This document shows positions 4,139-57,386 of a stretch of 64,000 nucleotides of DNA, in pieces. Source of the stretch: an uncultured Lachnospiraceae bacterium (GTDB taxonomy: Bacteria > Bacillota > Clostridia > Lachnospirales > Anaerotignaceae); the NCBI GenBank assembly GCA_944384295.1, contig CALWSU010000010.1, forward strand, positions 2,061-66,060, read 5' to 3'. The notes below the pieces were generated by a model, which made no database searches, was not told the DNA's origin, and saw nothing but the letters and a program-made list of their open reading frames with translations. The stretch's first letter is position 1. Each line of letters starts with the position of its first letter. Both the position numbers and the translations under genes were made by a program.

Positions 4139-4249
4139 GTCATTTCGTCCTCTCTTTTGCCGAAAAATCTTTCCAACGGTTACACATTATACTGCTTTGT
4201 ATTGCGAAAATCAAGCGAATACGCCTGTATTTTCACTTGAAAAGCGTTT

Positions 4250-4535
4250 TAGACTGTAGAAAAAAGTTTTATATTTTTTTCATGAACGCGGAAGGGTTTG
4301 GGGAACAAAGCGTTCCCCAAATTCCATCCGCAGTCGGAATTTATTTCCGACGAGGAAAAGCAGAAATTTCAAGGCTTTTAGCCGATGGAATGCCGCACCC
4401 CGAAAGAGACGGGGGCAGCGAAGCTGACTTTGCGAAGCAAAGTGCTTGACCAGAGCTTTATACTTCTGTCTACTCGTCAAAGGCTTGAATGAAATGAGCC
4501 TTTGACGAAAGGGTGTCGACTTTTTCGACACCCTG
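4250..4535 (+). mobile_element. MITE-like structured repeat, copy 1 (286 bp, carries module B)
   Basis: Ends tagactgtagaaaaa...tttttcgacaccctg; flanked by a 19-bp near-direct repeat tttcacttgaaaagcgttt (4231-4249) / tttcgcttgcaaagcgttt (4536-4554); homologous to four other copies. Confidence 0.85.
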
Positions 4536-4541
4536 TTTCGC

Positions 4542-4570
4542 TTGCAAAGCGTTTATTTTTTGCGTACAAT
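4542..4570 (+). promoter_or_regulatory. Putative sigma-A promoter of nfo-ogt
   Basis: TTGCAA-17 bp-TACAAT; the -35 box lies inside the right target duplication of repeat copy 1. Confidence 0.55.
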
Positions 4571-6027: not shown

Positions 6028-6256
6028 CAGACTGTAGAAAAACTAGATTTTATATTTTTTCAAGCGCGCGGAAGGGATTGGGAAACGAAGCGTTTCCCAA
6101 ATAGAATCCGCAGTCGGAATTCATTTCCGACGAGGAAAAGTCGAAGTTTCAAGGCTTTTAGCCGATGGAACTTCGAGCTTTATACTTCTGTCTACTCGTC
6201 AAAGGCTTGAATGAAATGAGCCTTTGACGATAGGGTGTCGATTTTTCGACACTCTA
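6028..6256 (+). mobile_element. MITE-like structured repeat, copy 2 (229 bp, minimal form)
   Basis: cagactgtagaaaaa...tttttcgacactcta; flanks ataatta / gtaatta (7 bp, 1 mismatch), the right one containing the stop codon of the aldo/keto reductase. Confidence 0.85.
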
Positions 6257-6260
6257 GTAA

Positions 6261-7100
6261 TTAGAATGTATCTGGGTGATGTCCGCTCCATTGTCCTTGT
6301 GGTGCTGTCATCAAACGGGAAACTTCTTCTGGTGTCAAAGAAAAATCAAAGATATCTAAATTTTCCTGCATGCGCTGTAAAGAAGAAGATTTCGGCAATG
6401 GCAGGATATGCTGTTCCAAAGCAAAACGCAGACAGATTTGTGCAGGTGTTTTTCCATATTTTTGTGCAAGCTCTAGTAAAAATGGGTCGTCTAATGCTTT
6501 TGTACGTCCCAAAGGACTCCATGCTTCTACCAAAAGCCCTTGTGATTGGCAATAGGATACGGCATAAGATTGCGTATAACCAGGGTGAAATTCCAATTGG
6601 TCTACCATAGGCGTGATATTGGCAGCAACCATCAATGGCATCAAGTGATGTGGTAAAAAGTTGCTCACGCCAATGGCGCGCAGTACTTTTTGTTCATATA
6701 ATTTTTCCATAGCATGCCATGCAGAAATTACTTTTTCCGCCCATGCGTCGCGGTCAACTTCAGGCATGGGCCAGTGCAACAGGCACAAATCCAGATAGTC
6801 GGTTTGCAAATCTTGTAAAGATGCTTCTATACTACGCATTGCATCGTCATAAGACAGTGCAGAACGCCATACTTTGGTAGTCAAAAATAAATCTTTTCGG
6901 TCAATCCCTGCGGTACGAATCGCATTGCCTACTTGTGTTTCATTGCCATACATACGCGCGGTGTCTATATGGCGATAGCCTGCCAGCAAAGCAGTGCAAA
7001 GCACGGATTCCGCAGTATCGTCTGTGACTTTGTAAGTGCCAAAACCGATTTTTGGAATTTTTACGCCGTTATATAATGTATAGTATTCTTGTTCTTGCAT
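6261..7100 (-). CDS. Aldo/keto reductase (2,5-DKG reductase-like)
   Basis: IPKIGFGT, GYRHIDTA..Y, LFLTTK, DYLDLCLLHWP, AIGVSNF, QLEFHP, AWSPLG, LPKSS motifs. Confidence 0.92.
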   Translation of the reverse strand: MQEQEYYTLYNGVKIPKIGFGTYKVTDDTAESVLCTALLAGYRHIDTARMYGNETQVGNAIRTAGIDRKDLFLTTKVWRSALSYDDAMRSIEASLQDLQTDYLDLCLLHWPMPEVDRDAWAEKVISAWHAMEKLYEQKVLRAIGVSNFLPHHLMPLMVAANITPMVDQLEFHPGYTQSYAVSYCQSQGLLVEAWSPLGRTKALDDPFLLELAQKYGKTPAQICLRFALEQHILPLPKSSSLQRMQENLDIFDFSLTPEEVSRLMTAPQGQWSGHHPDTF

Positions 7101-7121
7101 ATTATGTTGCCTCCTTCAAAA

Positions 7122-8357
7122 TCATATGTTTTCTGCCATTTGCGCGTATTTTTGATGCGCCAATGACAACAAATATTCTGTTTGGTTGTGGGCTGGTTCT
7201 TCCCATACATCTGCGAGAAGGGCGGATAAAATTTCTCCGATTGCTTTCCCAGCAGGGATACCTTCTGCCATCAATGTTTTGCCATCTATGGCGAGTGTTT
7301 TGAGTGTCAAACAATCACCGCTTGCAAGGATTTCACAAAGCAATGTTTGTGCTTTGTCCGCGCCATTTTGCGGATATAAAATATGTTGTAGTGTGAGTAA
7401 ATCTCGCGTCATATCCGCGCCAATGGTACCCGCAAGACGGCGTAGCTGAGGCTTGGTTTGTGGGGTAGGCTGATGCAGTACACGTAATAAGGTGAGAATA
7501 TATTTTGTAGTTTGGTTATCAAATTTCAGTTTTTTACAAAATTGTTTTGCTTCAGATTCTGTATAACCTTGTAAAACCAATGTCCAACGCAATGCCATAA
7601 CGGCAGGTGCAGCCGAAAGCTGTGTACAAAGCGCATCACCATAATTTGCCAGACGTTCTGCAAACAAAGTGTCGATATGTGGCAATAATCCACTTTCCAA
7701 TAACAACGGCAGACGGTCAGAAAAAGGCGAAAGCCAAAGCTTTGTCAATTCTGTGAAAATGCGTTCCGCGCTGATATGGGCAATCAAAGCGGCATTTTGC
7801 TGTAATGCGGTATAGGTCGCTGGTTCTACGCAAAAACCCAATTGCGCCGCAAAACGTACACAACGCAGCATACGCAAAGCGTCTTCTTGAAACCGTTTGG
7901 CAGGTTCTCCCACGCCGCGGATACATTTTTTGGCAATATCCGCACGTCCCCCAAAAGGGTCTTGAAATCCAATGGCGGGGTGATATGCAATGGCATTCAT
8001 GGTAAAATCACGTCGCAGCAAATCTTCTTTCAGATTGGGGGTAAACTGCACCGAAGTCGGGTGACGGTTGTCCTCATATGCGCCATCAATACGATAGGTT
8101 GTGATTTCGTAATTGGTTTGATGCAGCACAACGGTAATGGTACCATGTTGTATGCCAGTATCAAATGTATGCGCAAATAATGCTTTTGTTTGTTCTGGTA
8201 ATGCAGAAGTGGTGATGTCCCAGTCCTGCGGTGTGCGTCCTAATATACAGTCACGCACACAACCGCCTACAATATAGGCTTCATAGCCATTTTGGCATAA
8301 TGTTTGGAGCAATGTATGCACGTCTTGTGGTATCAATTTGTAATCAATGGCGTTCAT
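7122..8357 (-). CDS. cca: CCA tRNA nucleotidyltransferase
   Basis: YIVGGCVRD, DWDITT, GIQHGT, EDLLRRDFTMNA, RFQEDALRMLR, ISAERI; likely start MNAIDY at 8357. Confidence 0.92.
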   Translation of the reverse strand: MNAIDYKLIPQDVHTLLQTLCQNGYEAYIVGGCVRDCILGRTPQDWDITTSALPEQTKALFAHTFDTGIQHGTITVVLHQTNYEITTYRIDGAYEDNRHPTSVQFTPNLKEDLLRRDFTMNAIAYHPAIGFQDPFGGRADIAKKCIRGVGEPAKRFQEDALRMLRCVRFAAQLGFCVEPATYTALQQNAALIAHISAERIFTELTKLWLSPFSDRLPLLLESGLLPHIDTLFAERLANYGDALCTQLSAAPAVMALRWTLVLQGYTESEAKQFCKKLKFDNQTTKYILTLLRVLHQPTPQTKPQLRRLAGTIGADMTRDLLTLQHILYPQNGADKAQTLLCEILASGDCLTLKTLAIDGKTLMAEGIPAGKAIGEILSALLADVWEEPAHNQTEYLLSLAHQKYAQMAENI

Positions 8358-8545
8358 ATATACTTCATTCCTTTGGTATTTTTGATGGTTGTTCTTCCAA
8401 GCATACATATTATAACATAAATTTGTATCAATAAGATAGAAAGTTTTCGTATAGATGGCTGGTACAAAATCGTTTTTTGCAGAAAAAAGTATTGACAGTA
8501 TGGAAAAATCGTGATAGTATATTTTTTGCAATCTGATAGAAGTAT

Positions 8546-8618
8546 GCGCCCTTAGCTCAGTTGGTAGAGCAACTGACTCTTAATCAGTGGGTCCAGGGTT
8601 CGAGTCCCTGAGGGCGCA
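8546..8618 (+). tRNA. tRNA-Lys (anticodon CTT), CCA not encoded
   Basis: Acceptor stem gcgccct/agggcgc, D arm agctcagttggtagagc, anticodon stem actga/tcagt with loop ctCTTaa, T arm ggttcgagtcc; followed by A then TTT. Confidence 0.95.
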
Positions 8619-8784
8619 TTTTAGAAGCAGTGTTTTTCGGCAAAGTGATGTCGGGGGACGCTGTTTTTTTGTTTATATTTCTTTATTGTATACAAACAAC
8701 TTGCGTCGCCATTCTTGACACCAAATTCCACTCTATTATATGATAATAACAGAAAAGGCATACAAAGCGAAAGAAGGTGGCAGC

Positions 8785-10221
8785 ATGCAGAAAACAAAGC
8801 GGCGAATTGAACATTTTTCCTATTATGATATGGAAGGGATTGCCGAACACCTGCGCAAAATGGCGGCAAAAGGCTGGTATCTGCAAAGTATTACTCCATT
8901 GTATTGGGAATATGAAGCAGATACGCCCAAGCGTGTCAATTATTTTCTGACATTCGGTACACAAGGTATTTTTGGGTATCAGGAAGAAGATTGGACTTAT
9001 GTAACCAATTGGCAAGAGATGGAAATTTACCGTACAGAAGATACTTCTGTGGTGGTGCCGATACAAGATAGCCGCACAAAATTAAAAGCAATCCAAAAAC
9101 AGATGAAACAAAGTTTTGTGCCGATTTATACCTTGGGTATTTTTATGGCATTGTTGTTGCTGTTTTTGCCTTGTTTTGCCATACTGCGGGATTTTTTGAC
9201 ATGGCTGCCAGATGGTGTTTGGATGTTAAGTACATTGTCTGGGGTATTGTTGTTTTTATATACATTTGGACGTTTGCACCAATATCGCAAATGGTGTAAA
9301 CGCTCGAAAGAATGTATGTATCAATATGGCTTATGCGCGCCGGTTTTATTGGGACAACGCCGCAGAACAAAATTGTCATTTTTCAGCACATTAGTGGTAT
9401 TGTTATTTTATAGCATATTGTTGCTGCTGCGCATTGTACCAGATTTGCATATAGAATTTTCGTATGTTTCCATCTTTGCGGGCATATTGCTTTTGGTGTT
9501 TTGTGGCTGGCGCATTTGGGACAAGCATAAACAGCCAATACGAAGTAAGGTACCTTTTCAAAAAGCATATTTGCGTGTGTCCATTGTGGCATTGCTCGTG
9601 CCTGTGTTGTTGTCGGGTGTGATGTATGTAGGAGAAAAGGGCGAATTTCTTCCAAAACGTGCGATAGAAACCGTATCAGTCAAAGAAAGTACCGGTTTGG
9701 TTTCTGAATTTTATGTTTATGATGATACATTGCCTTTGTCTATTGAGGATTTACTGGGGGCACAGGAGGGCAAATATTCCAAGCGGTATCTCATGAAAGG
9801 CTCTATCTTGGCGACATATGCGCGATGCACACAAATGACACCGCCGAATGTGAGTGAATTGCCAAAATTAGAATATGAAATATGGCAGTTTCGAGGACAA
9901 AAACAATTTGAAAATGCTTTAGAATACATGCTTTCTGGCATAAATGTAAATGATGATGAGTTACAAGGGTATCAAACGTTGTTGCTCGACGGTATAGATA
10001 TGGCATATCAGCGGTACTATAGAGAGGAACTTTGCAACGAGTTTTTATTGGTCAAAGATAAAAAAATCGTACATCTGCTGACCAGTTGGGAAATGACACA
10101 AGAACAGTTAGATACAGTCGTATCGAAATTGTTTTTGTCAGAAACAGCAGAAACATCTGAGCCATCTGAAACAGTAGAACAAACCGAACAAACAGATACG
10201 GTATTGCACCCAACCGAATAA
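8785..10221 (+). CDS. DUF2812-like membrane protein
   Basis: N-terminal pattern EHLRKMAAKGWYL...WTYV...EIY followed by about five TM segments and a soluble C-domain; start MQKTKRR after RBS GAAGGTGG. Confidence 0.65.
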   Translation: MQKTKRRIEHFSYYDMEGIAEHLRKMAAKGWYLQSITPLYWEYEADTPKRVNYFLTFGTQGIFGYQEEDWTYVTNWQEMEIYRTEDTSVVVPIQDSRTKLKAIQKQMKQSFVPIYTLGIFMALLLLFLPCFAILRDFLTWLPDGVWMLSTLSGVLLFLYTFGRLHQYRKWCKRSKECMYQYGLCAPVLLGQRRRTKLSFFSTLVVLLFYSILLLLRIVPDLHIEFSYVSIFAGILLLVFCGWRIWDKHKQPIRSKVPFQKAYLRVSIVALLVPVLLSGVMYVGEKGEFLPKRAIETVSVKESTGLVSEFYVYDDTLPLSIEDLLGAQEGKYSKRYLMKGSILATYARCTQMTPPNVSELPKLEYEIWQFRGQKQFENALEYMLSGINVNDDELQGYQTLLLDGIDMAYQRYYREELCNEFLLVKDKKIVHLLTSWEMTQEQLDTVVSKLFLSETAETSEPSETVEQTEQTDTVLHPTE

Positions 10222-10256
10222 AATCTGAATAAAATCTATCAAAAAATCAACCATAC

Positions 10257-10297
10257 AAAAAAACCTGTTGCCGTGAGCAGTGGCAACAGGTTTTTTT
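10257..10297. terminator. Bidirectional intrinsic terminator
   Basis: aaaaacctgttgcc-gtgagcagt-ggcaacaggttttt between convergent genes. Confidence 0.8.
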
Positions 10298-10314
10298 GAT
10301 GCAGATGGAACTGT

Positions 10315-10833
10315 TTATTTGATTGGTGCAAAAGCGCGTATGCGCGGCACAAATGCGACCAGTGCGCGAATCGCTACAATCTCTACAATGCCCATAATCA
10401 AACATTGTACCACACGTGTTGCCATCAAAGGCAGGAAGGGTGAGCCATACAATACACTAATCCAAAATGTATTGAGCAAAAGAGAGCCAATCAATTCTGT
10501 TAGGAATATCACAGCAACAATACGCAACATGGTTTGCTTTTCGTGCAGAAAATAACCATACGCGAATCCTACCAAAAATGCGGTCAGTGTAAATCCGGGA
10601 AAATACTGCCCAATGGGAAACAAAATCGCGCCTAAAAAATCCGCAATTGCGGCAACAATCCCTGCTTGCCATTTGCCCAAATATAACGCAGTCAATACCA
10701 CAGGCACAAAGGCAAAGCCGATTTTCAAATTCCATGCCGCGATGGAGAGAAAGCGCGACAATATGATGTTCAGTGCAATCATCAATGCCATAAAAACAAG
10801 GTGTTGTGTAGAAATTTTACGTGTCGTTGGCAT
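10315..10833 (-). CDS. folT: Folate ECF transporter S component
   Basis: MALMIALNIILSRFLSI...LKIGF...YFPGFTLTA...LLNTFWISVLYG pattern; lies downstream of a THF riboswitch; start MPTTRK at 10833. Confidence 0.9.
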   Translation of the reverse strand: MPTTRKISTQHLVFMALMIALNIILSRFLSIAAWNLKIGFAFVPVVLTALYLGKWQAGIVAAIADFLGAILFPIGQYFPGFTLTAFLVGFAYGYFLHEKQTMLRIVAVIFLTELIGSLLLNTFWISVLYGSPFLPLMATRVVQCLIMGIVEIVAIRALVAFVPRIRAFAPIK

Positions 10834-10949
10834 AAAAAAAGAACCCCCTTTGTTATAAAACCATGTTTCAAACGATAACTGCAAATACCCTTGTCCCAAA
10901 AAACAAGGTTTGCTGTGATAACAAAGAGCGCTCACTTCTTTATTATGAA

Positions 10950-11045
10950 ACAGCGGGATGCGGGTTTTGTATCGCAAGCTATGCTTTTCGTTCCTGTGAC
11001 AACTCCCCGTTCACAAGACACTTAACGCACAAAGCCCTACTCTGT
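10950..11045 (-). ncRNA. THF (tetrahydrofolate) riboswitch
   Basis: Minus strand ACAGAGTAGG...TGCGTTAAGTG...GGGAGTTGTC...ACGAAAAG...TTGCGATA...CCCGCATCCCGCTGT matches the THF aptamer consensus, upstream of folT. Confidence 0.9.
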
Positions 11046-11184
11046 ATTTGCGTCTGTATGACTGGTATCATACAACGCCATTGTAGCACGCATACAAGGG
11101 AAAGTAAAGAGAGAAATCAGAAAAAAGAAAAACGCACAAAATCAGTATGCAAAGATTTTGTGCGTAGATTTTTTTCAATATGTT

Positions 11185-11787
11185 TTATGCTTCGATGGGG
11201 CAAAGCGCAAATGCCACAAGCAGAGATTTGCGAGAGGCAAAAGACCCCGCAAGCGTGATATTGCCCATATCCAAACCGTATGTCTGTGTCAAAGTAGAAA
11301 AAATACGGTCGGTTTCCAAAAAGCCGCCATTGCCAAAATAAAAGCAAATGATGTGGCTGTCTTTGGGCAGTTGGGAAAATTCTGCTTCTGAAAATGCGCG
11401 TATGACTTTGTTTTTGTCTTGGGATAATGTTTGTTTCAAAAAAGAAAGTTCAATATCCAAATGCAAAAACTCCTGTGAGGCATAGTATAATGCTGTCATC
11501 ATTTCTAATAAATCATGCTCGCCCGAAAAAGAAAGTGTCAGTGGAAATTGTGGCTGACAATTTTTTTGTAATGTGCAGATAAACCAAGGTGTGGTATCTG
11601 CGGCAAAAGAAATATGATAGGGGCGTTTTTGCACAATTTCAAAATCGTCTATGGCAAATACCAATGTATTGCCGCTGATTTTGGTGCTGATGGGCAATTT
11701 TCTTTTTTTGAGCTGCGCCTGTAAGGTATCAGACGCGCCATATAACCGCATCCCGTCAGAGTGAAAGCCGAGCATAACAAAAAGCAC
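11185..11787 (-). CDS. Hypothetical protein (start uncertain)
   Basis: 200-aa ORF directly downstream of ychF on the same strand; no family recognised with confidence. Confidence 0.6.
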   Translation of the reverse strand: MLFVMLGFHSDGMRLYGASDTLQAQLKKRKLPISTKISGNTLVFAIDDFEIVQKRPYHISFAADTTPWFICTLQKNCQPQFPLTLSFSGEHDLLEMMTALYYASQEFLHLDIELSFLKQTLSQDKNKVIRAFSEAEFSQLPKDSHIICFYFGNGGFLETDRIFSTLTQTYGLDMGNITLAGSFASRKSLLVAFALCPIEA

Positions 11788-11800
11788 CTCCTGTCACGGA

Positions 11801-12898
11801 TTATACAGTAAAGCGGAATAATACCACATCGCCATCTTTGACGACATATTCTTTGCCTTCGGAACGTACTAAACCCTGTTCTTTTGCGGCGTTATAAGAA
11901 CCCAGACGCATCAAGTCGTCATAAGCCACAACTTCCGCACGAATGAAACCACGCTCAAAATCACTGTGGATTTTGCCGGCAGCCTGTGGTGCTTTTGTGC
12001 CGTTTTTGATAGTCCATGCACGAGATTCCTGTGGACCTGCGGTCAAATAGCTAATCAGACCCAATAAACGATAACTTGCCGCAATCAGACGGTCTAAGCC
12101 ACTGCTTTCGACACCCAAATCCGCCAAAAATTCTTTTTTGTCGGCATCGTCTAAATCGGAAATTTCTTCTTCGATTTTTGCGCATAATACAAACACTTCA
12201 TTGTTTTCACGTGCCGCATATTCGCGTACACGCTGTACATATTCGTTGCTTGCGCCATCGTCCGCCAAATCGTCTTCTGTCACATTTGCTGCATACAGTA
12301 CGGGTTTTGCAGTCAAAAGTGTTAAACTGTCCACAAAAGCCTGTTCTTCTGGTGTGTCACAGACCACAGAACGCGCAGAAATACCTTGTTCCAAAGCATC
12401 TTTGAGTTTTTGCAGTGTGTCCATTTCTTTTTGCAAAGACTTGTCCGCCTTTGCCATTTTGCCAGTTTTTGCAATACGACGTTCCAAAATTTCCAAGTCG
12501 GAAAATACCAATTCCAGATTGATGGTTTCGATGTCGCGAATTGGGTCGATGCTGCCGTCTACATGTACGACATTGGGGTCTTCAAAACAACGTACCACAT
12601 GTACCACAGCGTCTACTTCGCGGATATGTGACAAAAATTTGTTGCCCAAGCCTTCGCCTTTGCTTGCGCCGCGTACCAGCCCCGCAATATCCACAAATTC
12701 AATCACAGCAGGTGTGGTTTTTGCGGAATCATACATTTCTGTCAATTTTTGCAGGCGTTCGTCTGGTACTGTCACAATGCCTACATTGGGTTCTATGGTA
12801 CAGAAGGGATAGTTTGCCGCTTCTGCCTTGCCCAGTGTCATAGAATTGAATAATGTGCTTTTGCCGACATTGGGCAGTCCTACAATACCTAATTTCAT
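11801..12898 (-). CDS. ychF: Redox-regulated ribosome-binding ATPase YchF
   Basis: GIVGLPNVGKSTLFN, NYPFCTIEPN, DIAGLV.GASKGEGLGNKFL, IHSDFERGFIRAE, EGKEYVVKDGD. Confidence 0.97.
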   Translation of the reverse strand: MKLGIVGLPNVGKSTLFNSMTLGKAEAANYPFCTIEPNVGIVTVPDERLQKLTEMYDSAKTTPAVIEFVDIAGLVRGASKGEGLGNKFLSHIREVDAVVHVVRCFEDPNVVHVDGSIDPIRDIETINLELVFSDLEILERRIAKTGKMAKADKSLQKEMDTLQKLKDALEQGISARSVVCDTPEEQAFVDSLTLLTAKPVLYAANVTEDDLADDGASNEYVQRVREYAARENNEVFVLCAKIEEEISDLDDADKKEFLADLGVESSGLDRLIAASYRLLGLISYLTAGPQESRAWTIKNGTKAPQAAGKIHSDFERGFIRAEVVAYDDLMRLGSYNAAKEQGLVRSEGKEYVVKDGDVVLFRFTV

Positions 12899-13006
12899 AT
12901 ACGTGTCTTCCTTTCCGAAATCTGACAAAAGGCCGTCGACTTTGGGCTTCCTCTAGTATCGTCTAGTATCGGAAAATATGCTTTGGTCGACAGCCTTATC
13001 ATTTGC

Positions 13007-13354
13007 TTAAAATTTCAATTCATCTAAATCAATCGTACCCATTGGGATTGCGTTGCCACATGCGGGACAGGCGATTTCTGTCACAGTTTCCATGGTTTCT
13101 TCGTCTACGTCGATTTCTTCGCCGCAGTTGGGACAGATAAAAGAATAAAAATAAACAGGTTCTTCTGTTTCGGCTTCGTCTAGTTCCATTTCTTCCAATT
13201 CTTCATCGTCCAGAAATGTTTCCAGCATAAAAGCCATATCTTCCAAAATATCCATCATACCATGAAAGATTTTTCCTTCTTTGCTTTCTGGATCAAAACC
13301 GCTGCCATCACACAGCCCTCTCAGATATGTGATTTTCTTTTCAAAATATTCCAT
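13007..13354 (-). CDS. CD1247-like acidic zinc-ribbon protein
   Basis: YLRGLCDG N-terminal helix, CPNCGEEI and CPACG Cys pairs; next to efp as is usual in Clostridia. Confidence 0.75.
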   Translation of the reverse strand: MEYFEKKITYLRGLCDGSGFDPESKEGKIFHGMMDILEDMAFMLETFLDDEELEEMELDEAETEEPVYFYSFICPNCGEEIDVDEETMETVTEIACPACGNAIPMGTIDLDELKF

Positions 13355-13413
13355 GATGCAAGCCTCCCTTTTGGACGATACATGGATACATGCAAAATTA
13401 AAAATTTACAAAA

Positions 13414-13977
13414 TTAGTTGTTTGCTCTGCTTAGGTATTCGCCAGTACGTGTATCAATTTTGATGATTTCGCCCTGGTTGATGAACAGAGGAACCTGAAC
13501 AGATGCACCTGTTTCTACGATAGCAGGTTTGGTTGCGCCCTGTGCAGTGTTGCCTGCGAAACCAGGTTCTGTTTCTGTGATTTCCAGTTCTACGAACAGA
13601 GGGGGTTCAATACCAAATACATTGCCGTCGTGGGACAGGATTTTTACGTTTTCGTTTTCTTTTACAAATTTCAGTGCATCGCCAACATCATCTGCGTTCA
13701 ATGCAATCTGGTCGAATGTTTCGTTGTTCATGAAGTGATACAGTTCGCCATCGTTGTACAGATATTGCATATCCTGTCTGTCGATGTGTGCTTTAGACAT
13801 TTTTTCAGTAGGGCGGAATGTTTTTTCTACCACTGCGCCTGTTTTGATATTTTTTAATCTGGTACGTACGAAAGCAGCACCTTTACCAGGTTTTACATGC
13901 TGGAATTCCAGAACGCTGTAAATTTCGCCTTCGTATTCCATTGTTACGCCGTTTCTAAGTTCACCTGCAGAAATCAT
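13414..13977 (-). CDS. efp: Elongation factor P
   Basis: [42 protein letters not shown]. Confidence 0.98.
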
Positions 13978-14156
13978 GTTTTGTTTTCCTCCTCAAAATC
14001 ATCTCACAGGGAAAAAATTCCCCGCTGTTTGTATTCTTATACTGCTTAAAATGCCCAAAAAGAAACAAAAATCTTTTCCGCAAAATAAGCATATCCTTAT
14101 CTATTTTACTGGAAAATCAGCTCTTTTTCAATACGTTACGCAAAAAAAACCATATT

Positions 14157-14693
14157 TTACAAGTTTTTTTGCACTTTTGGGGGCTGTGCTATGCCATTTC
14201 TACGAAAATATACACGCATCACACAACGTTCTGCACCACGTTTGACTTTGGTAATCAGTTGGTCACGTGCGCAGATAGGCGCCGTCATAATGCAGTATAA
14301 GCCGCCGCGGTGCCCACACCACATATCGGTAAACACTTGGTCGCCTACCAAAGCCGCCTCTTGCGGTACAAGCCCTAATTTTGCCAAAGCTGCTTTGAGT
14401 TTGCGCGGACTGGGCTTGCCTGCTTTATGTATGGCTAATGTGCGTAAGGGCTGATTGAAACGATGTACGCGTTTTTGATTGTTGTTGGATAAAATACAAA
14501 GTCGAAACCCTTGCGCGCGTAAATGCGCAAAATATGCAATCAATTTTTCGTCCGGGTCAGCCACATCAAAGGGTGCAATCGTGTTGTCAATATCGAATAC
14601 CAGACCACGTATGCCCATTTCCCGCAATGTTTCCAAAGGCAGGTCATACACAGAGGGCAAATAAATATCAGGGAAAAATCGTTCCAAAATCAT
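14157..14693 (-). CDS. yqeG: YqeG family HAD IIIA phosphatase
   Basis: FDIDNTI, ILSNN, AGKP, VGDQVFTD motifs; start MILERFFP after RBS GGAGG. Confidence 0.9.
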   Translation of the reverse strand: MILERFFPDIYLPSVYDLPLETLREMGIRGLVFDIDNTIAPFDVADPDEKLIAYFAHLRAQGFRLCILSNNNQKRVHRFNQPLRTLAIHKAGKPSPRKLKAALAKLGLVPQEAALVGDQVFTDMWCGHRGGLYCIMTAPICARDQLITKVKRGAERCVMRVYFRRNGIAQPPKVQKNL

Positions 14694-14760
14694 ACCGTCA
14701 AATAAACCTCCTCTTTCGATTTGACAAAAATTATCAAACAAACCAAAAAATCAAAACTCT

Positions 14761-15053
14761 CAGACTGTAATAAAGTACATTTTTTACTTTTTTCAAGAAT
14801 GCAGAAGGGCTTGGGGAACAATTGTCAACACGTTTGCTGCGCAAACGCCAGCCATAAATGGCTGTCCGCACTTCTTTGCGGTGTGTAGTTCCCCAAATTT
14901 AATCCGCAGTCGGAATTCATTTCCGACGAGGAAAAGCCGAAGTTTCAAGGCTTTTTAGCCGATGGAACTTTGGTTTTATACTTCTGTCTACTCGTCAAAG
15001 GCTTGAATGAAATGAGCCTTTGACGACAGGGTGTCAACTTTTTTGACACCCTG
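14761..15053 (+). mobile_element. MITE-like structured repeat, copy 3 (293 bp, carries module A)
   Basis: cagactgtaataaag...ttttttgacaccctg; perfect 8-bp target duplication aaaactct (14753-14760 / 15054-15061). Confidence 0.88.
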
Positions 15054-15405
15054 AAAACTCTTCCAATTCTTCGTCTGCTTCCAAACGCAACAAAGCGTTT
15101 TCTTCAATAGTACCCAAACGCTCTCCGCTCAGATACCGAATCATAATTGCGTCTGCATCTCCTGTCACGCCATACGTCAATTCGATTCGTTTGGTGCGCA
15201 AAAGTGTTTTTGTTTCAGAACGTATTGCTGCGCAAATGACAGCGTTAATTTCCTGCTTTGTCAAAAAATCCGCCATACGCCCACGTAGTGCGACGGTTTC
15301 TTTTGCCCGTACCAGTTCGATTTCCACATCATAGATGGTAAATTCTTTTGCTTGTTCATACAACAGACAGATTTGTCCGTTTTCGGTTGGTATAGCAACC
15401 CGCAT
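15034..15405 (-). CDS. NifB/NifX family (dinitrogenase Fe-Mo cofactor-binding-like) protein
   Basis: MRVAIPTENG...AKEFTIYDVE, INAVIC, GVTGDAD...YLSG pattern; last six residues are encoded by repeat copy 3. Confidence 0.8.
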   Translation of the reverse strand: MRVAIPTENGQICLLYEQAKEFTIYDVEIELVRAKETVALRGRMADFLTKQEINAVICAAIRSETKTLLRTKRIELTYGVTGDADAIMIRYLSGERLGTIEENALLRLEADEELEEFSGCQKS

Positions 15406-15574
15406 ACACGCCACCGCCTTTCTGTTTGTATTGTATCCGTAGAAATAGGGAATTGTCAAATTTTCGTATAAAAATTTTTGCCTAATTCGTCAAAAAAGGG
15501 TACAATAATGTACGATACAAATAGAAGGATATAGCAAGGAAAAAATTTTTGTATCACAGGAAAGGAGATTTTTT

Positions 15575-16690
15575 ATGGACGCAAGAATCGAAACTTTAGC
15601 ATATAATCTGGTGCATCATTCCTGCCGCCTGCAAAAGGGCGAAAAAATTATGATTCATCAAAATGGGATACATCCCACGCCTTTGGTAAAGGCAATCATA
15701 AAAGAAGTATATCGTACAGGCGGTGTACCATTTTTGCGCTTGATGACCAATTCTTTGGAACGGGAACTGCTTTTGGGCGCAGAACAGGAACAGCTTGCAT
15801 TGATGGCAGAAGCAGACGCCCTCCTCATGAAAGAGATGGACGCTTTCATCGGCGTGCGTGGTGAGGATAATATCACAGAACAAGCAGACGTACCCAATGA
15901 CAAGCAAACATTATATGAGCGTTTTTATTCCGCGCCAGTGCATCATGATATTCGTGTACCACATACAAAATGGGTGGTGCTGCGCTATCCCACAAACGCT
16001 ATGGCGCAAGCGGCACATACCAGTTTAGAGGATTTTGAAGATTTTTATTTCAATGTCTGCAATCTGGATTACAGCAAAATGTCAAAAGCAATGGACGCAT
16101 TGGTAGCTTTGATGGAACGTACCGATAAAGTACGCCTTGTAGCAAAGGGTACCGATTTGACATTCTCTATCAAAGGCATTCCTGCCATCAAATGCGCAGG
16201 TGGCTGCAATATCCCAGATGGCGAAGTGTATACTGCTCCAGTACGTGATTCTGTACAAGGCGTGATTACCTATAACACACCTTCTGAATATAATAGCTTT
16301 ACATTTGAACAGGTTAAGCTGACATTTGAAAACGGGAAGATTGTGGATTGTGACGGCAACGATAAAGCACGTCTGACAGAGATTTTCAACACAGACAAAG
16401 GCGCGCGCTATGTGGGAGAATTTGCGATTGGTGTGAATCCTTATATCACAAAGCCTATGAATAATATTTTGTTTGATGAAAAAATTGCAGGCAGTATTCA
16501 TTTTACACCCGGCAACAGCTATGATGATGCGCCAAACGGCAACCATTCCGCAATCCATTGGGATTTGGTGTTGATTATGACACCAGAATATGGCGGCGGT
16601 GAAATCTGGTTTGATGATGTGTTGATTCGCAAAGATGGTAGATTTGTCGTGCCAGAATTAGAGTGCTTGAATCCTGAAAACTTGAAATAA
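15575..16690 (+). CDS. Aminopeptidase, M29 family (AmpS/PepS-like)
   Basis: NIPDGEVYTAP, GEFAIG, FDEKIAGSIHFTPG, SAIHWDLV motifs. Confidence 0.92.
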   Translation: MDARIETLAYNLVHHSCRLQKGEKIMIHQNGIHPTPLVKAIIKEVYRTGGVPFLRLMTNSLERELLLGAEQEQLALMAEADALLMKEMDAFIGVRGEDNITEQADVPNDKQTLYERFYSAPVHHDIRVPHTKWVVLRYPTNAMAQAAHTSLEDFEDFYFNVCNLDYSKMSKAMDALVALMERTDKVRLVAKGTDLTFSIKGIPAIKCAGGCNIPDGEVYTAPVRDSVQGVITYNTPSEYNSFTFEQVKLTFENGKIVDCDGNDKARLTEIFNTDKGARYVGEFAIGVNPYITKPMNNILFDEKIAGSIHFTPGNSYDDAPNGNHSAIHWDLVLIMTPEYGGGEIWFDDVLIRKDGRFVVPELECLNPENLK

Positions 16691-16711
16691 GACAATAAAA
16701 ATAAAAGGAAC

Positions 16712-16742
16712 ATGTCCCTAAGTTTTTTGACTTGTGGGACAT
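16712..16742. terminator. Hairpin/terminator duplicated on both sides of repeat copy 4 (second copy 16974-17005)
   Basis: atgtccctaagttttttgacttgtgggacat with self-complementary ends, between convergent genes. Confidence 0.65.
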
Positions 16743-16973
16743 CAGATTGTAGAAAAAGTATATCTTTTACTTTTTTTCAAGAACGCGGAAGGGTTTGGGA
16801 AACGAAGCGTTTCCCAAATTTAATCCGCAGTCGGAATTCATTTCCGACGAGGAAAAGCCGAAGTTTCAAGGACTTTAGACGATGGAACTTCGGCTTTATA
16901 CTTCTGTCTACTCGTCAAAGGCTTGAATGCAATGAGCCTTTGACGACAGGGTGTCGACTTTTTCGGCACCCTG
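16743..16973 (+). mobile_element. MITE-like structured repeat, copy 4 (231 bp, minimal form)
   Basis: cagattgtagaaaaa...tttttcggcaccctg; flanked by a 31/32-bp direct repeat differing by one C. Confidence 0.9.
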
Positions 16974-17012
16974 ATGTCCCCTAAGTTTTTTGACTTGTGG
17001 GACATATTCTTT

Positions 17013-30091: not shown

Positions 30092-31504
30092 ATGAAAAAT
30101 CAAAAATATCTGTGTTTTATTGGCATCGTCTGGGTGGTTTTGATTCTGCCATTTGTTGGTATGACATTTTGGGCGACCAATGAAACGACAGAGAATACAG
30201 AGCTAGCAAAATGGCCGCAATGGAAAAAAGAAGATGGTTACAATCAGGCATATTTGCAGGAAATGGGCGCGTATTTTGAAGACCATTTTGCATTTCGGCA
30301 AGCGTTTGTTACAGCCAATGCAGTTTTGCGCGCAAAAGTGCTGCATACCAGTGCAACCGACCAAGTGGTTTTGGGTGACAAGGATTGGTTGTATTTTAGC
30401 GGAACACTGGCAGACTATACAGGTACAAACTTGTTTTCGGAAAGAGAACAATATGCACTCATACATAATATGAAATTGATGCAAAATTATATCGAGGCAC
30501 AAGGTAGTCAGTGTTTGTTTCTGATTCCACCAAACAAAAATACTTTATACGACGAAAATATGCCGTATTATTACCAAAAAGGCGAAACCAGCAATTTGCA
30601 GCAGCTTTCGCAAAAATTTGCGGCGGAAGGTATTGCATATCTGGATTTATACGAGATTTTCCGCCAACAAGAAGAGGTTTTATATTTTCAGCGAGATTCT
30701 CATTGGAACAATCAAGGTGCGCTTTTGGCATATACCAGCTTGATGGAACAAATAGGGCGTACCTCTGATACCTATGAAACATATCGCAATGTACCCAGAC
30801 ATGTAGAGCAAAACCATGTCGGGGACTTGGACGAAATGCTCTATCCTTTGGCAGTGCAGCTAGAAGCGGATACTGTATTTGACAAAACACCCGATTTTGT
30901 TTATGTCAATGATGTGATAGACAATATGGACGAATGGATTGAAACAAAAAATCCCAAACAGACAGGCAGTATTTTGATGTATCGGGATTCTTTTGGAGAA
31001 AGTTTATTGCCCTTTGTAGCAGACGCGTTTGGGACAGGCTATTTTTCCAGGTTGGTGCCGTATAATTTGCTGCAAGTGGAACAATATCACCCAGATGTGG
31101 TGGTGATTGAAAAAGTGGAACGCAATTTAGACGATTTTATATGGGATATGCCGATTATGGAATGTCCACAAGTGTCTGATATTGCCGCGCCGCAAGTCGA
31201 AACCTCTACCACCATAGAAACCAAAAAAGCGGGTTCTTTTTTAGAAATCAAAGGCAGATTAGACGAAAGTTATCTGCAAACAGATACAGAAATTTATGTA
31301 GCGGTACAAGATTTGCAGACCATGCAGACAAAAACATATCAAACATTTTATACCGCAACAGAGGATGTGGATGCAAATGGTTACCATTTGTATTTAAAAG
31401 GCGCAAGTGTACCACAAGGAGAAATACAGATTTCTGTGATTGCGGTCAAGCAAAAACAGCCATTTGTGGTAGCTGATACAACGATAACATGGAGTGAAGC
31501 ATAA
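30092..31504 (+). CDS. DHHW / AlgJ-AlgX-like membrane-anchored acyltransferase
   Basis: N-terminal TM, YFEDHFAFR, IPPNK, RDSHWN, YRDSFG, EKVERN motifs. Confidence 0.82.
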   Translation: MKNQKYLCFIGIVWVVLILPFVGMTFWATNETTENTELAKWPQWKKEDGYNQAYLQEMGAYFEDHFAFRQAFVTANAVLRAKVLHTSATDQVVLGDKDWLYFSGTLADYTGTNLFSEREQYALIHNMKLMQNYIEAQGSQCLFLIPPNKNTLYDENMPYYYQKGETSNLQQLSQKFAAEGIAYLDLYEIFRQQEEVLYFQRDSHWNNQGALLAYTSLMEQIGRTSDTYETYRNVPRHVEQNHVGDLDEMLYPLAVQLEADTVFDKTPDFVYVNDVIDNMDEWIETKNPKQTGSILMYRDSFGESLLPFVADAFGTGYFSRLVPYNLLQVEQYHPDVVVIEKVERNLDDFIWDMPIMECPQVSDIAAPQVETSTTIETKKAGSFLEIKGRLDESYLQTDTEIYVAVQDLQTMQTKTYQTFYTATEDVDANGYHLYLKGASVPQGEIQISVIAVKQKQPFVVADTTITWSEA

Positions 31505-38417: not shown

Positions 38418-38499
38418 ACAGAACACCGATATAAGCCAATAGAAACCAACATTGACAGCAATCCCAAAGCGTGGTATGCTGAACACACAACGATATATT

Positions 38500-38580
38500 T
38501 TTTGCTGGGGGTGCCGGATACAATCGGCTGAGAAATACCCTTTTTCACCTGATCTGGATCATACCAGCGTAGGGAAGCAT
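38500..38580 (+). ncRNA. TPP riboswitch
   Basis: GGGGTGCC...GGCTGAGA..TACCC...ACCTGATCTGGATCATACCAGCGTAGGGAA, followed by terminator gcgcagc...gctgcgc-TTTTT, upstream of thiD. Confidence 0.95.
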
Positions 38581-38683
38581 GAGAAAATGCAGAGCAGGCG
38601 CAGCAAAGGCGAAATTTTTTCGTAGCTGCGCTTTTTCTATGGAAAAAAAGAATAGTCAGGAAACAGAATAGGAGGAACGCAAT

Positions 38684-56604: not shown

Positions 56605-56742
56605 ATCATTTGTTTGACTGATTTTTGGTAGGGACTGCCCCTCCTTGTATTGCATTTTTGCATATGAGGAGGGGTTTTTCTATTTTTTTTGACGAAAATT
56701 TATCAGAATAAAATAGTATATATTGTATTTCAAAATATACAG

Positions 56743-57094
56743 TAGATTGTAGAAAAGTACATTTTTTACTTTTTTCAAGAACGCGGAAGGGTTTGGGGAA
56801 CCAATGTCAACACGTTTGCTATGCAAACGCCAGCCATAAATGGCTGTCCGCACTTCTTTGCGGTGTGTAGTTCCCCAAATTCAATCCGCAGTCGGAATTT
56901 ATTTCCGACGAGGAAAAGCCGAAGTTTCAAGGCTTTTTAGCCGATGGAATGCCGCACCCCGAAAGAGACGGGGGCAGCGAAGCTGACTTTGCGAAGCAAA
57001 GTGCTTGACCAGAGCTTTATACTTCTGTCTATTCGTCAAAGGCTTGAATGAAATGAGCCTTTGACGACAGGGTGTCGATTTTTTCGACACCCTG
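56743..57094 (+). mobile_element. MITE-like structured repeat, copy 5 (352 bp, modules A and B)
   Basis: tagattgtagaaaag...ttttttcgacaccctg; flanks gtatatattgtatttcaaaatatacag / atgtattttgtatttaaaaatatacag (27 bp, 4 mismatches). Confidence 0.88.
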
Positions 57095-57386
57095 ATGTAT
57101 TTTGTATTTAAAAATATACAGAATGGCAAAGGTAAATACGCACAAAGCGCGGATTATGCGCAAATACTGCAAAAAATGCAGGTGTACCCCATTTTTTATA
57201 AGCAAAATTTAATATCAAAATGGAAAAATTGCCCATTGACTTTGTGAATTATTTGTGTTTTAATAAAGAAAAGATGATAATTTTTAGTCATTTGTCTGAT
57301 ATGCGTGCCAAAGTGCGCACGTTGTCAGAGAACAAGCAAAACAATTGTAATTTATTGTAATCTATACATATAAGGAGGAGTTTCCC

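Follow-up and report, generated by a model that had tools for sequence, protein, structure and literature searches.

Background

The described systems closest to the repeat reported here are insertion sequences (ISs) and small mobile repeats associated with hairpins. IS1272, a member of the IS1182 family, targets stem-loops, and the published model of its transposition includes a route that duplicates the entire stem-loop (PMC5678879). Like the present repeat, bcr1 of the Bacillus cereus group is a small mobile repeat of the Bacillota with flanking direct repeats and compensated stem-loops (PMC3184786). The pneumococcal BOX elements, as well as RUP and SPRITE, are likewise modular and highly folded intergenic repeats in which the number of internal modules varies; these repeats are enriched downstream of genes (PMC3049150). 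Elements that are hairpin-rich and strand-specific, as the present one is, are also found among the palindrome-associated derivatives of IS200/IS605 and in the REP/RAYT systems.

In this work, comparative sequence and covariation analyses were applied to a repeat found in a 64,000-nt stretch of DNA (hereafter, the window) from an uncultured Lachnospiraceae bacterium. The repeat belongs to a known kind of element: it is an IS1182-type, hairpin-targeting miniature transposon.

Results

Copies of the repeat and their modules

Five copies are present in the window, in agreement with an initial annotation of this DNA, and all of them lie on the + strand; the range given there, 6028-16973, holds copies 2-4 only, because copies 1 and 5 sit outside it. 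Two core patterns each gave five matches in the window and none in 100 shuffles. The copies and their parts are as follows:

4231-4249 and 4536-4554: duplication flanking copy 1, TTTCACTTGAAAAGCGTTT and TTTCGCTTGCAAAGCGTTT, respectively
4250-4535, + strand: copy 1, 286 nt, core plus module 2 (4391-4452), 200.8 bits
6028-6256, + strand: copy 2, 229 nt, core form, 258.6 bits
14753-14760 and 15054-15061: 8-bp duplication flanking copy 3, AAAACTCT
14761-15053, + strand: copy 3, 293 nt, core plus module 1, 240.9 bits
About 14820-14887: module 1 of copy 3, within the P2 apex
16712-16742 (upstream) and 16974-17005 (downstream): duplicated terminator hairpin of copy 4, 31/32 bp, ATGTCCC(C)TAAGTTTTTTGACTTGTGGGACAT
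16743-16973, + strand: copy 4, 231 nt, core form, 255.5 bits
16748-16779, 16785-16828 and 16830-16848: helices P1, P2 and P3 of copy 4
16849-16903, 16912-16946 and 16947-16973: helices P4, P5 and P6 of copy 4
16743-16762, + strand: 5' terminal inverted repeat of copy 4, CAGATTGTAGAAAAAGTATA
16954-16973, - strand: 3' terminal inverted repeat of copy 4, reading CAGGGTGCCGAAAAAGTCGA on the - strand
56720-56742 and 57095-57121: duplicated AT-rich hairpin flanking copy 5
56743-57094, + strand: copy 5, 352 nt, core plus modules 1 and 2
About 56802-56869, and 56950-57011: modules 1 and 2 of copy 5

The flanks of copy 2 hold a short TAATTA-like repeat only. The repeat measures 229-357 nt, occupies about 80 loci in the 2.3-Mb genome (G000) and was found in 10 of 14 congeners in the genus Anaerotignum. 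It is non-coding, its substitutions tracking base pairing and not codons. Existing copies have acquired, shed or doubled the two optional hairpin modules (about 62-68 nt); these were considered as independent nested mobile elements, an option rejected since in G000 neither is ever found away from the element. Shortened copies of about 100 nt, which are deletion derivatives without P2-P5, also exist, so the interior is perhaps not strictly required.

Termini, targets and orientation

We identify the repeat as a non-autonomous miniature transposon (MITE). It has terminal inverted repeats with the family consensus CAGnnTGTmGAAAAA...CTG, and of 43 end-to-end candidates examined in G000, four of them false end pairs, 31 have flanking duplications of 4-44 bp. 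The site orthologous to that of copy 4, downstream of an M29 peptidase gene, is empty in 12 congeners; empty sites were also sought in same-strain contigs of other samples, which were all identical and all carried copies 3 and 4. Insertion occurs into AT-rich DNA, preferentially into terminator hairpins, and often duplicates the entire hairpin: in a mixed set, duplications of at least 15 bp were found at 25 of 77 copies, and 18 of these 25 duplications are strong hairpins. In congener G008 an H-E-H-E-H tandem is present.

Judged by sequence, the MITE termini correspond to those of IS1182-family ISs. A decayed IS1182-family element in G008 begins with GAGGGTGTCGAAAAAGTCCAG and adjoins a hairpin, and its protein fragment shares 70.5% identity with a transposase annotated as belonging to the IS1182 family; the source of this transposase, an intact IS on plasmid pTVN, has the ends CAGCCTGTCGAAAAAG...CTTCGACAATCTG and lies between two hairpins. 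The 3' terminal repeat of copy 4 matches both the G008 end GAGGGTGTCGAAAAAGTCCAG and the pTVN IS end CAGCCTGTCGAAAAAGTCCAG. At the MITE termini, 17-18 of 21 bases agree with the end of the G008 element, and a CAGnnTGTCGAAAAAG core is common to these termini and both ends of the pTVN IS. Only fragments of IS1182-family transposases were detected in G000, the searched Anaerotignum genomes and 55 genomes of the family's other genera, none of which gave an intact gene; draft assemblies, which make up most of the genomes searched, often drop IS copies. A scan of G000 and five relatives for terminal-repeat pairs 0.4-5 kb apart gave no autonomous copy.

Other sources of mobility were considered and rejected. 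For the ISAs1 and IS4/IS1634 families, a PF01609 search yielded only an IS5-family element (G000:C25:1-870), whose ends, TAGGGCGTATCTGAAAAGTC, bear a weak likeness to the repeat; the ends of the ISAs1 family are CAGGG. Terminator targeting of the kind known for class C group II introns, suggested by the targets and the strand bias, was rejected on account of the size of the element, the lack of an Rfam match and the presence of duplications. A replication-linked insertion bias is strong in G000 (38:4 and 32:7), where the folding strand of older copies is almost always the G-rich one; as a general property it was rejected, being absent in 16 other genomes (33:42).

Fold and covariation

The structure obtained with RNAalifold from an hmmalign alignment was poor because of inserts, and MAFFT on short-form copies and a covariance model were used instead. 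The consensus structure contains 62 supported pairs. The element has the end hairpins P1 and P6, with four more (P2-P5) between them. Copy 4 folds with -108.5 kcal/mol (z = -11.0), and 74% of its bases are paired in the minimum free energy structure, so that the earlier description of almost the whole element as paired was somewhat generous. The individual stems described there are all present: GGGGAAC/GTTCCCC in copies 1, 3 and 5 versus GGGAAAC/GTTTCCC in copies 2 and 4; the terminal hairpin GGGTGTCGA/TCGACACCC, replaced by GGGTGTCAA/TTGACACCC in copy 3, with the T.G variant TCGGCACCC in copy 4; and the stems GTCGGAA/TTCCGAC, AAGCCGAAGTT/AACTTCGGCTT and CGTCAAAGGCT/AGCCTTTGACG.

The covariation proposed from the five copies is borne out in two larger alignments. 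In a MAFFT alignment of 23 copies from nine genomes (A1), which was not fitted to the model structure, 96.6% of cells are paired and both sides have changed at 20 of the 62 pairs, versus 6.4 +/- 1.5 in shuffles and 1-6 with slid partners. In a model-aligned set of 78 copies from 12 genomes (A3), which was fitted to the model structure and whose counts therefore lean towards it, 95.7% of cells are paired and both sides have changed at 31 of the 62 pairs, versus 14.8 +/- 2.2 in shuffles and 10-15 with slid partners. None of 500 shuffles reached the observed covariation on any of the five measures, and 44 to 115 switches from one Watson-Crick pair to another were counted across 31 pairs. Pairing in P2-P6 has thus been preserved through many two-sided changes, and the element is not the neutral filler that the initial annotation had argued against.

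That annotation had also pointed to folding of the + strand, which is indeed favoured by the excess of G.T over A.C among minority cells (113 versus 51), by two conserved T.G pairs and by fold stability, the + strand being more stable than the - strand in 98 of 114 copies. The interior is better conserved than the terminal repeats, with a mean pairwise column identity of 0.834, compared with 0.535 for the 5' repeat and 0.755 for P6; for unpaired interior columns the value is 0.795. Comparison with known structured RNAs, which had been suggested as a check, matched no family: a search of the window against Rfam 15 at the gathering thresholds returned only THF, TPP and one tRNA, and copy 5, searched permissively at E up to 10, gave nothing above 17 bits.

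Distribution of variants among copies

Substitutions private to one copy fall evenly on paired and unpaired columns (0.41 and 0.42 per column, respectively). Non-consensus stem bases form a pair in 47% of cases if private, in 71% if found in 2-5 copies and in 84% if found in more than five (Fisher p = 2e-6); private variants mostly break pairs, and widely shared ones are compensated. Because of this difference between private and shared variants, we infer that the fold is selected in the source, propagating lineages and not in each resident copy, and that residents then decay neutrally.

Discussion

The reading that we favour, with modest confidence, is that the element is an IS1182-type MITE whose hairpin interior is kept by selection in the spreading lineages and whose fold serves mobilisation. 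An IS1182-type transposase would recognise stem-loops at its targets, and its own ends also carry stem-loops; stacking of the hairpins would compact the element, with its two end hairpins coming close to each other. The most likely form of this reading, for which we would give slightly less than an even chance, is that efficient mobilisation requires the + strand to fold as DNA, either single-stranded or extruded; an RNA as the selected form is also compatible with these data. Several points weigh against the favoured reading. Among the genomes searched, none gave an intact IS1182-family transposase; the deletion derivatives do without P2-P5; transposition of IS1182 via single-stranded or cruciform DNA has been published as a model and is not established as a mechanism; a fold serving the transposase predicts terminal repeats conserved at least as well as the interior, and the opposite is observed; the conserved unpaired linkers and bulges and the invariant U.G pairs look RNA-like; and the G.T excess could partly stem from strand-biased C-to-T mutation.

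A role at the RNA level is possible but doubtful. Since most of the T tract is lost from the upstream hairpin copy, transcripts of adjacent genes would read through into the element, and the + strand RNA fold would be under selection; the RNA might stabilise 3' ends or stand in for terminators, rendering insertions into them harmless, or be processed into a small RNA. Such a role agrees with the tolerance of G.U, the two conserved U.G pairs and the greater stability of the + strand, with the conservation of loops and linkers and with a slight preference for the sense orientation where the neighbouring genes are in tandem (20:6 in G000, 43:23 overall), and it has a precedent in bcr1, a transcribed repeat with compensatory changes (PMC3184786). 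However, no conserved promoter was found inside the element, genomes other than G000 show almost no preferred orientation relative to genes (23 sense versus 17 antisense), and the Rfam comparison speaks against such a role as well. Moreover, copies are not individually maintained, since private mutations are as frequent in stems as in loops and usually disrupt pairing. Among the roles listed in the initial annotation, a fold needed for mobility is the one that we favour, whereas a per-copy processing/stability cassette or sRNA gene fits poorly because private mutations decay in a neutral-looking fashion.

Selection on structure could also be dispensed with altogether if intrastrand template switching in quasi-palindromes, together with gene conversion between the numerous copies, kept the hairpins perfect, since these processes would yield two-sided changes in one event. 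Templated mutation is an established process in quasi-palindromes, the flips at several hypervariable pairs are transversions, for which no wobble intermediate is possible (one P5 pair alternates among GC, CG and UA and has switched at least 11 times on the tree), and the precise gain, loss and doubling of modules within copies indicates active recombination or slippage. Yet many transitions pass via G.U, as at one P4 pair (GC 39, GU 17, AU 8), a symmetrical DNA process predicts neither the excess of G.T over A.C nor a + strand preference, unpaired interior columns are conserved too, and private mutations stay uncorrected; we regard this explanation as improbable. Still less credible is that the stems are duplex palindromic sites for a dimeric protein (a transposase or host nucleoid protein), with dyad symmetry conserved and not folding. 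Palindromes do occur in the terminal repeats and in P6, as well as subterminally at IS ends of the IS1182 family, but stem sequence varies freely while pairing is kept, and wobbles, bulges, strand asymmetry, loops of 9-14 nt and a 68-nt module inside stems fit such sites badly.

A bolder version of the mobilisation reading, which we consider unlikely, is that the six-hairpin interior is a cis-acting folded cofactor, either fork-exposed single-stranded DNA or an element-encoded RNA, needed by an IS1182-type transposase. If true, it would constitute a structure-guided mode of transposition not described for DDE transposons, and would account for the interior being conserved above the terminal repeats, for the strand-specific fold and for the orientation of older copies in G000.

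The element provides a case of a bacterial miniature transposon in which the internal fold, not the terminal repeats, is the best-conserved part, and in which the footprint of selection lies in spreading lineages, not resident copies. With a length of 230 nt and many natural compensated variants, it is a tractable substrate for studying how a hairpin-directed IS1182-family transposase chooses and handles its targets, a mechanism that is so far only a model. Annotation of the element improves genomes from gut metagenomes, because it fragments Anaerotignum assemblies, leaves duplicated terminators and is able to rewrite the ends of genes.

Comparison with known systems

With IS1272 and the IS1182 family, the MITE shares matching ends and stem-loop or terminator targets, and duplication of the whole hairpin is one pathway of the IS1272 model (PMC5678879). 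Unlike an IS1182-family IS, it has no transposase gene, and its interior has no likeness to any of the IS sequences compared; IS1272 replaces its target hairpin and leaves no duplication, whereas MITE insertions have duplications. The conserved, covarying array of six hairpins with optional modules further sets the MITE apart. The replication-linked orientation bias in G000, absent from the other genomes sampled, resembles that of IS200/IS605-derived and REP/RAYT elements, but a single-strand element of those types was rejected, since they are without terminal inverted repeats or target duplication and both are present here.

Among the small repeats, bcr1 is about 155 bp long with two stem-loops and fixed 5-bp duplications, in contrast to the six hairpins and 4-44 bp duplications of the present element, a comparison of architecture and not of sequence. 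BOX, RUP and SPRITE differ from it in sequence and in presumed transposase, and the terminal repeats of BOX and RUP pair with each other, whereas the present element folds into local hairpins. Purely as an analogy, SINE/Alu master copies show the same combination of structure-preserving changes in source lineages and neutral decay of dispersed copies; SINEs, however, are retrotransposed RNAs, and evidence of an RNA intermediate or a reverse transcriptase is absent here, where the ends and targets are those of an IS1182-type MITE.

Element copies, size classes and predicted fold

The initial annotation had described five copies of a repeat; these are copies of one non-coding element, although the range that it gave (6028-16973) omits two of them. 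The other features listed were found by Rfam scan.

Element copies and RNA features in the window
4250-4535, + strand, element copy 1
6028-6256, + strand, element copy 2
14761-15053, + strand, element copy 3
16743-16973, + strand, element copy 4
56743-57094, + strand, element copy 5
8546-8618, + strand, tRNA
10949-11046, - strand, THF riboswitch (92 bits)
38497-38592, + strand, TPP riboswitch (70 bits)

Every stem variant quoted in that annotation was recovered among the five copies. Folded as RNA, the + strand of copy 4 forms six hairpins, P1-P6, with P1 and P6 at the ends, at -108.5 kcal/mol (z = -11.0), and 74% of its bases are paired in the MFE fold; the - strand folds at -95.7 kcal/mol. 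The source genome (G000; 2.31 Mb in 73 contigs) holds about 80 element loci, many of them at contig ends. Element copies fall into four size classes (about 231, 293, 290 and 353 nt) because two modules are optional: module 1, of 62-68 nt, at the apex of P2, and a second, of ~62 nt, on the 3' side of P4. In G000 the modules were never found outside the element; a 472-nt copy (G000:C17, about 30400-30880, reverse strand) carries both of them doubled in tandem. Orthologous copies were identified in two species pairs (L030:553-780 and L043:5700-5992; L031:691-915 and L056:615-898). Within each pair the two copies share their flanks and a duplicated hairpin, are ~98-99% identical (alignments A4 and A5), and differ only in that one of them precisely lacks the 62-64 nt module 1 at the P2 apex; therefore, modules are gained or lost within resident copies.

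Shorter forms also occur. Derivatives of ~60-105 nt (G000:C8:4051-4155, C43:8810-8912 and C1:12460-12519) retain scarcely anything apart from the two end hairpins. Each is seemingly single-copy, and a flanking duplication accompanies at least one of them. Solo P6-like hairpins (GGGTGTCGA-loop-TCGACACCC), with the rest of the element absent, lie directly 3' of genes at G000:C13 (about 7440-7472) and on G000:C59, at the end of a 509-nt false pair (reverse strand). They may be element remnants or independent terminators.

Covariation and strand preference

Two alignments were used to assess structural selection. A1 comprises 23 short-form copies from 9 genomes, aligned with MAFFT on sequence alone. 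For A3, 78 copies from 12 genomes were aligned with a covariance model that we built; A3 is thus biased towards the structure of the model, and A1 is free of such bias. Standard pairs occupy 96.6% of cells in A1, where two-sided change was observed at 20 of 62 pairs, compared with 6.4 +/- 1.5 in shuffles (0/500 reached the observed value) and 1-6 in the slid-partner control. In A3, where 95.7% of cells are paired, two-sided change affects 31 of 62 pairs (shuffles, 14.8; slid controls, 10-15), and the cells so changed number 241 (shuffles, 64; slid controls, 21-45). The compensatory changes reported in the initial annotation are therefore upheld in both larger alignments. Fitch parsimony on a FastTree tree of the copies put the number of Watson-Crick to Watson-Crick switches over 31 pairs at 115 or more, a figure that recombination among copies may inflate; counting types alone gives an absolute minimum of 44.

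Templated mutation or gene conversion could in principle explain the pairing without selection. The wobble intermediates and the asymmetry between strands make this less likely. Of the non-Watson-Crick cells, 113 are minority G.T against 51 A.C, and T.G is conserved at two positions. Of 114 copies, 98 fold more stably on the + strand under RNA parameters (mean difference -7.8 kcal/mol) and 94 under DNA parameters; among the 71 copies from genomes with random orientation relative to GC skew, 64 show this advantage.

In G000 itself, 38 of 42 full internal copies scored with 30-kb skew windows, and 32 of 39 with 8-kb windows, have their + strand on the G-rich strand; every one of the 12 located between convergent genes is oriented in this way. 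Of the six copies with the opposite orientation, five are among the youngest, with identity to the consensus of at least 0.95 (Fisher p = 0.009). No such bias was detected in 16 other Anaerotignum genomes (33:42).

Level at which selection acts

The interior is better conserved than the ends, with a mean pairwise column identity of 0.834 (0.795 for its unpaired columns) compared with 0.535 in the 5' repeat and 0.755 in P6. Substitutions private to one copy are evenly spread (0.41 per paired and 0.42 per unpaired column) and mostly disrupt pairs.

Non-consensus stem bases forming a standard pair, by breadth of sharing
Private to one copy, 47%
In 2-5 copies, 71%
In more than 5 copies, 84%

Since pairing rises with sharing (Fisher p = 2e-6) while private changes mostly break pairs, the compensated variants were inherited from source elements, and resident copies show no visible constraint as they decay. 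This pattern speaks against a function kept up at the individual loci and in favour of selection on the propagating lineages.

Ends, insertion sites and the IS1182 family

The element is a MITE. Its 5' start, CAGACTGTAGAAAAA, and 3' end, TTTTTCGACACCCTG, form an imperfect terminal inverted repeat. The direct duplications that border the copies vary from 4 to 44 bp, the long ones being entire terminator-type palindromes composed of an A tract, a stem-loop and a T tract. In the Anaerotignum congener G008, two tandem copies (L060:617-845 and 871-1097) alternate with three occurrences of one 25-bp hairpin, the arrangement that a second insertion into the duplicated hairpin of the first would be expected to produce. 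The family is restricted to Anaerotignum and a few related genera; 10 of the 14 congeners contain it, and the cultured strain Anaerotignum lactatifermentans DSM 14214 is among its carriers. In 12 congeners the site occupied by copy 4 has no insertion; copies 3 and 4 are present in all same-strain contigs from other samples. On one metagenome scaffold (L074:1720-1979) the place of copy 3 is taken by a 260-nt variant whose upstream flank differs; it is either a product of recombination between copies or a chimera assembled through the repeat.

A Pfam PF13751 search of the genus yielded one IS1182-family element, the only trace there of a possible partner: a decayed copy with stop codons and an internal deletion in G008 (L179, about 230-672; G008:C105). 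Its outer end, GAGGGTGTCGAAAAAGTCCAG, immediately adjoins a hairpin. Thermocaproicibacter melissae plasmid pTVN encodes an annotated IS1182-family transposase with which the N-terminal fragment of the G008 element shares 70.5% identity. The intact pTVN IS (1.5 kb, ends CAGCCTGTCGAAAAAGTCCAG ... TTCTTCGACAATCTG) is flanked by two hairpins. The core CAGnnTGTCGAAAAAG is common to the MITE ends and the pTVN IS ends, beyond which the element interior has no further resemblance to the IS. Neither G000, nor the Anaerotignum genomes searched, nor 55 genomes from other genera of the bacterial family, most of all these being draft assemblies, yielded an intact partner transposase. An IS5-family element of ~870 bp with two reading frames lies exactly at a contig end (G000:C25:1-870, L177); its ends, TAGGGCGTATCTGAAAAGTC, resemble those of the MITE only loosely. 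IS1272, a member of the IS1182 family, targets inverted-repeat structures irrespective of sequence, and one pathway of its model has an extruded stem-loop duplicated in full through strand transfer at its 5' feet (PMC5678879).

Selected form and comparison with known systems

For mobilisation, the + strand would need to fold as single-stranded or extruded DNA. We favour this reading because a DDE transposase moves DNA and the IS1182 family recognises stem-loops. A serious rival is a role as RNA in read-through transcripts, for which bcr1 offers a precedent (PMC3184786); no conserved sigma-70-type promoter was found within the element, which in tandem gene contexts is sense to its neighbours in a ratio of 20:6 in G000 and 23:17 elsewhere.

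The element acts at hairpins, as do IS1182-family elements; it shows compensatory changes, as does bcr1 (PMC3184786), and is modular like BOX. Neither IS1182-derived MITEs nor the present family are described in the reviews and papers searched. The element is less usual in its covarying multi-hairpin interior and in the contrast between selection on source lineages and decay of resident copies.
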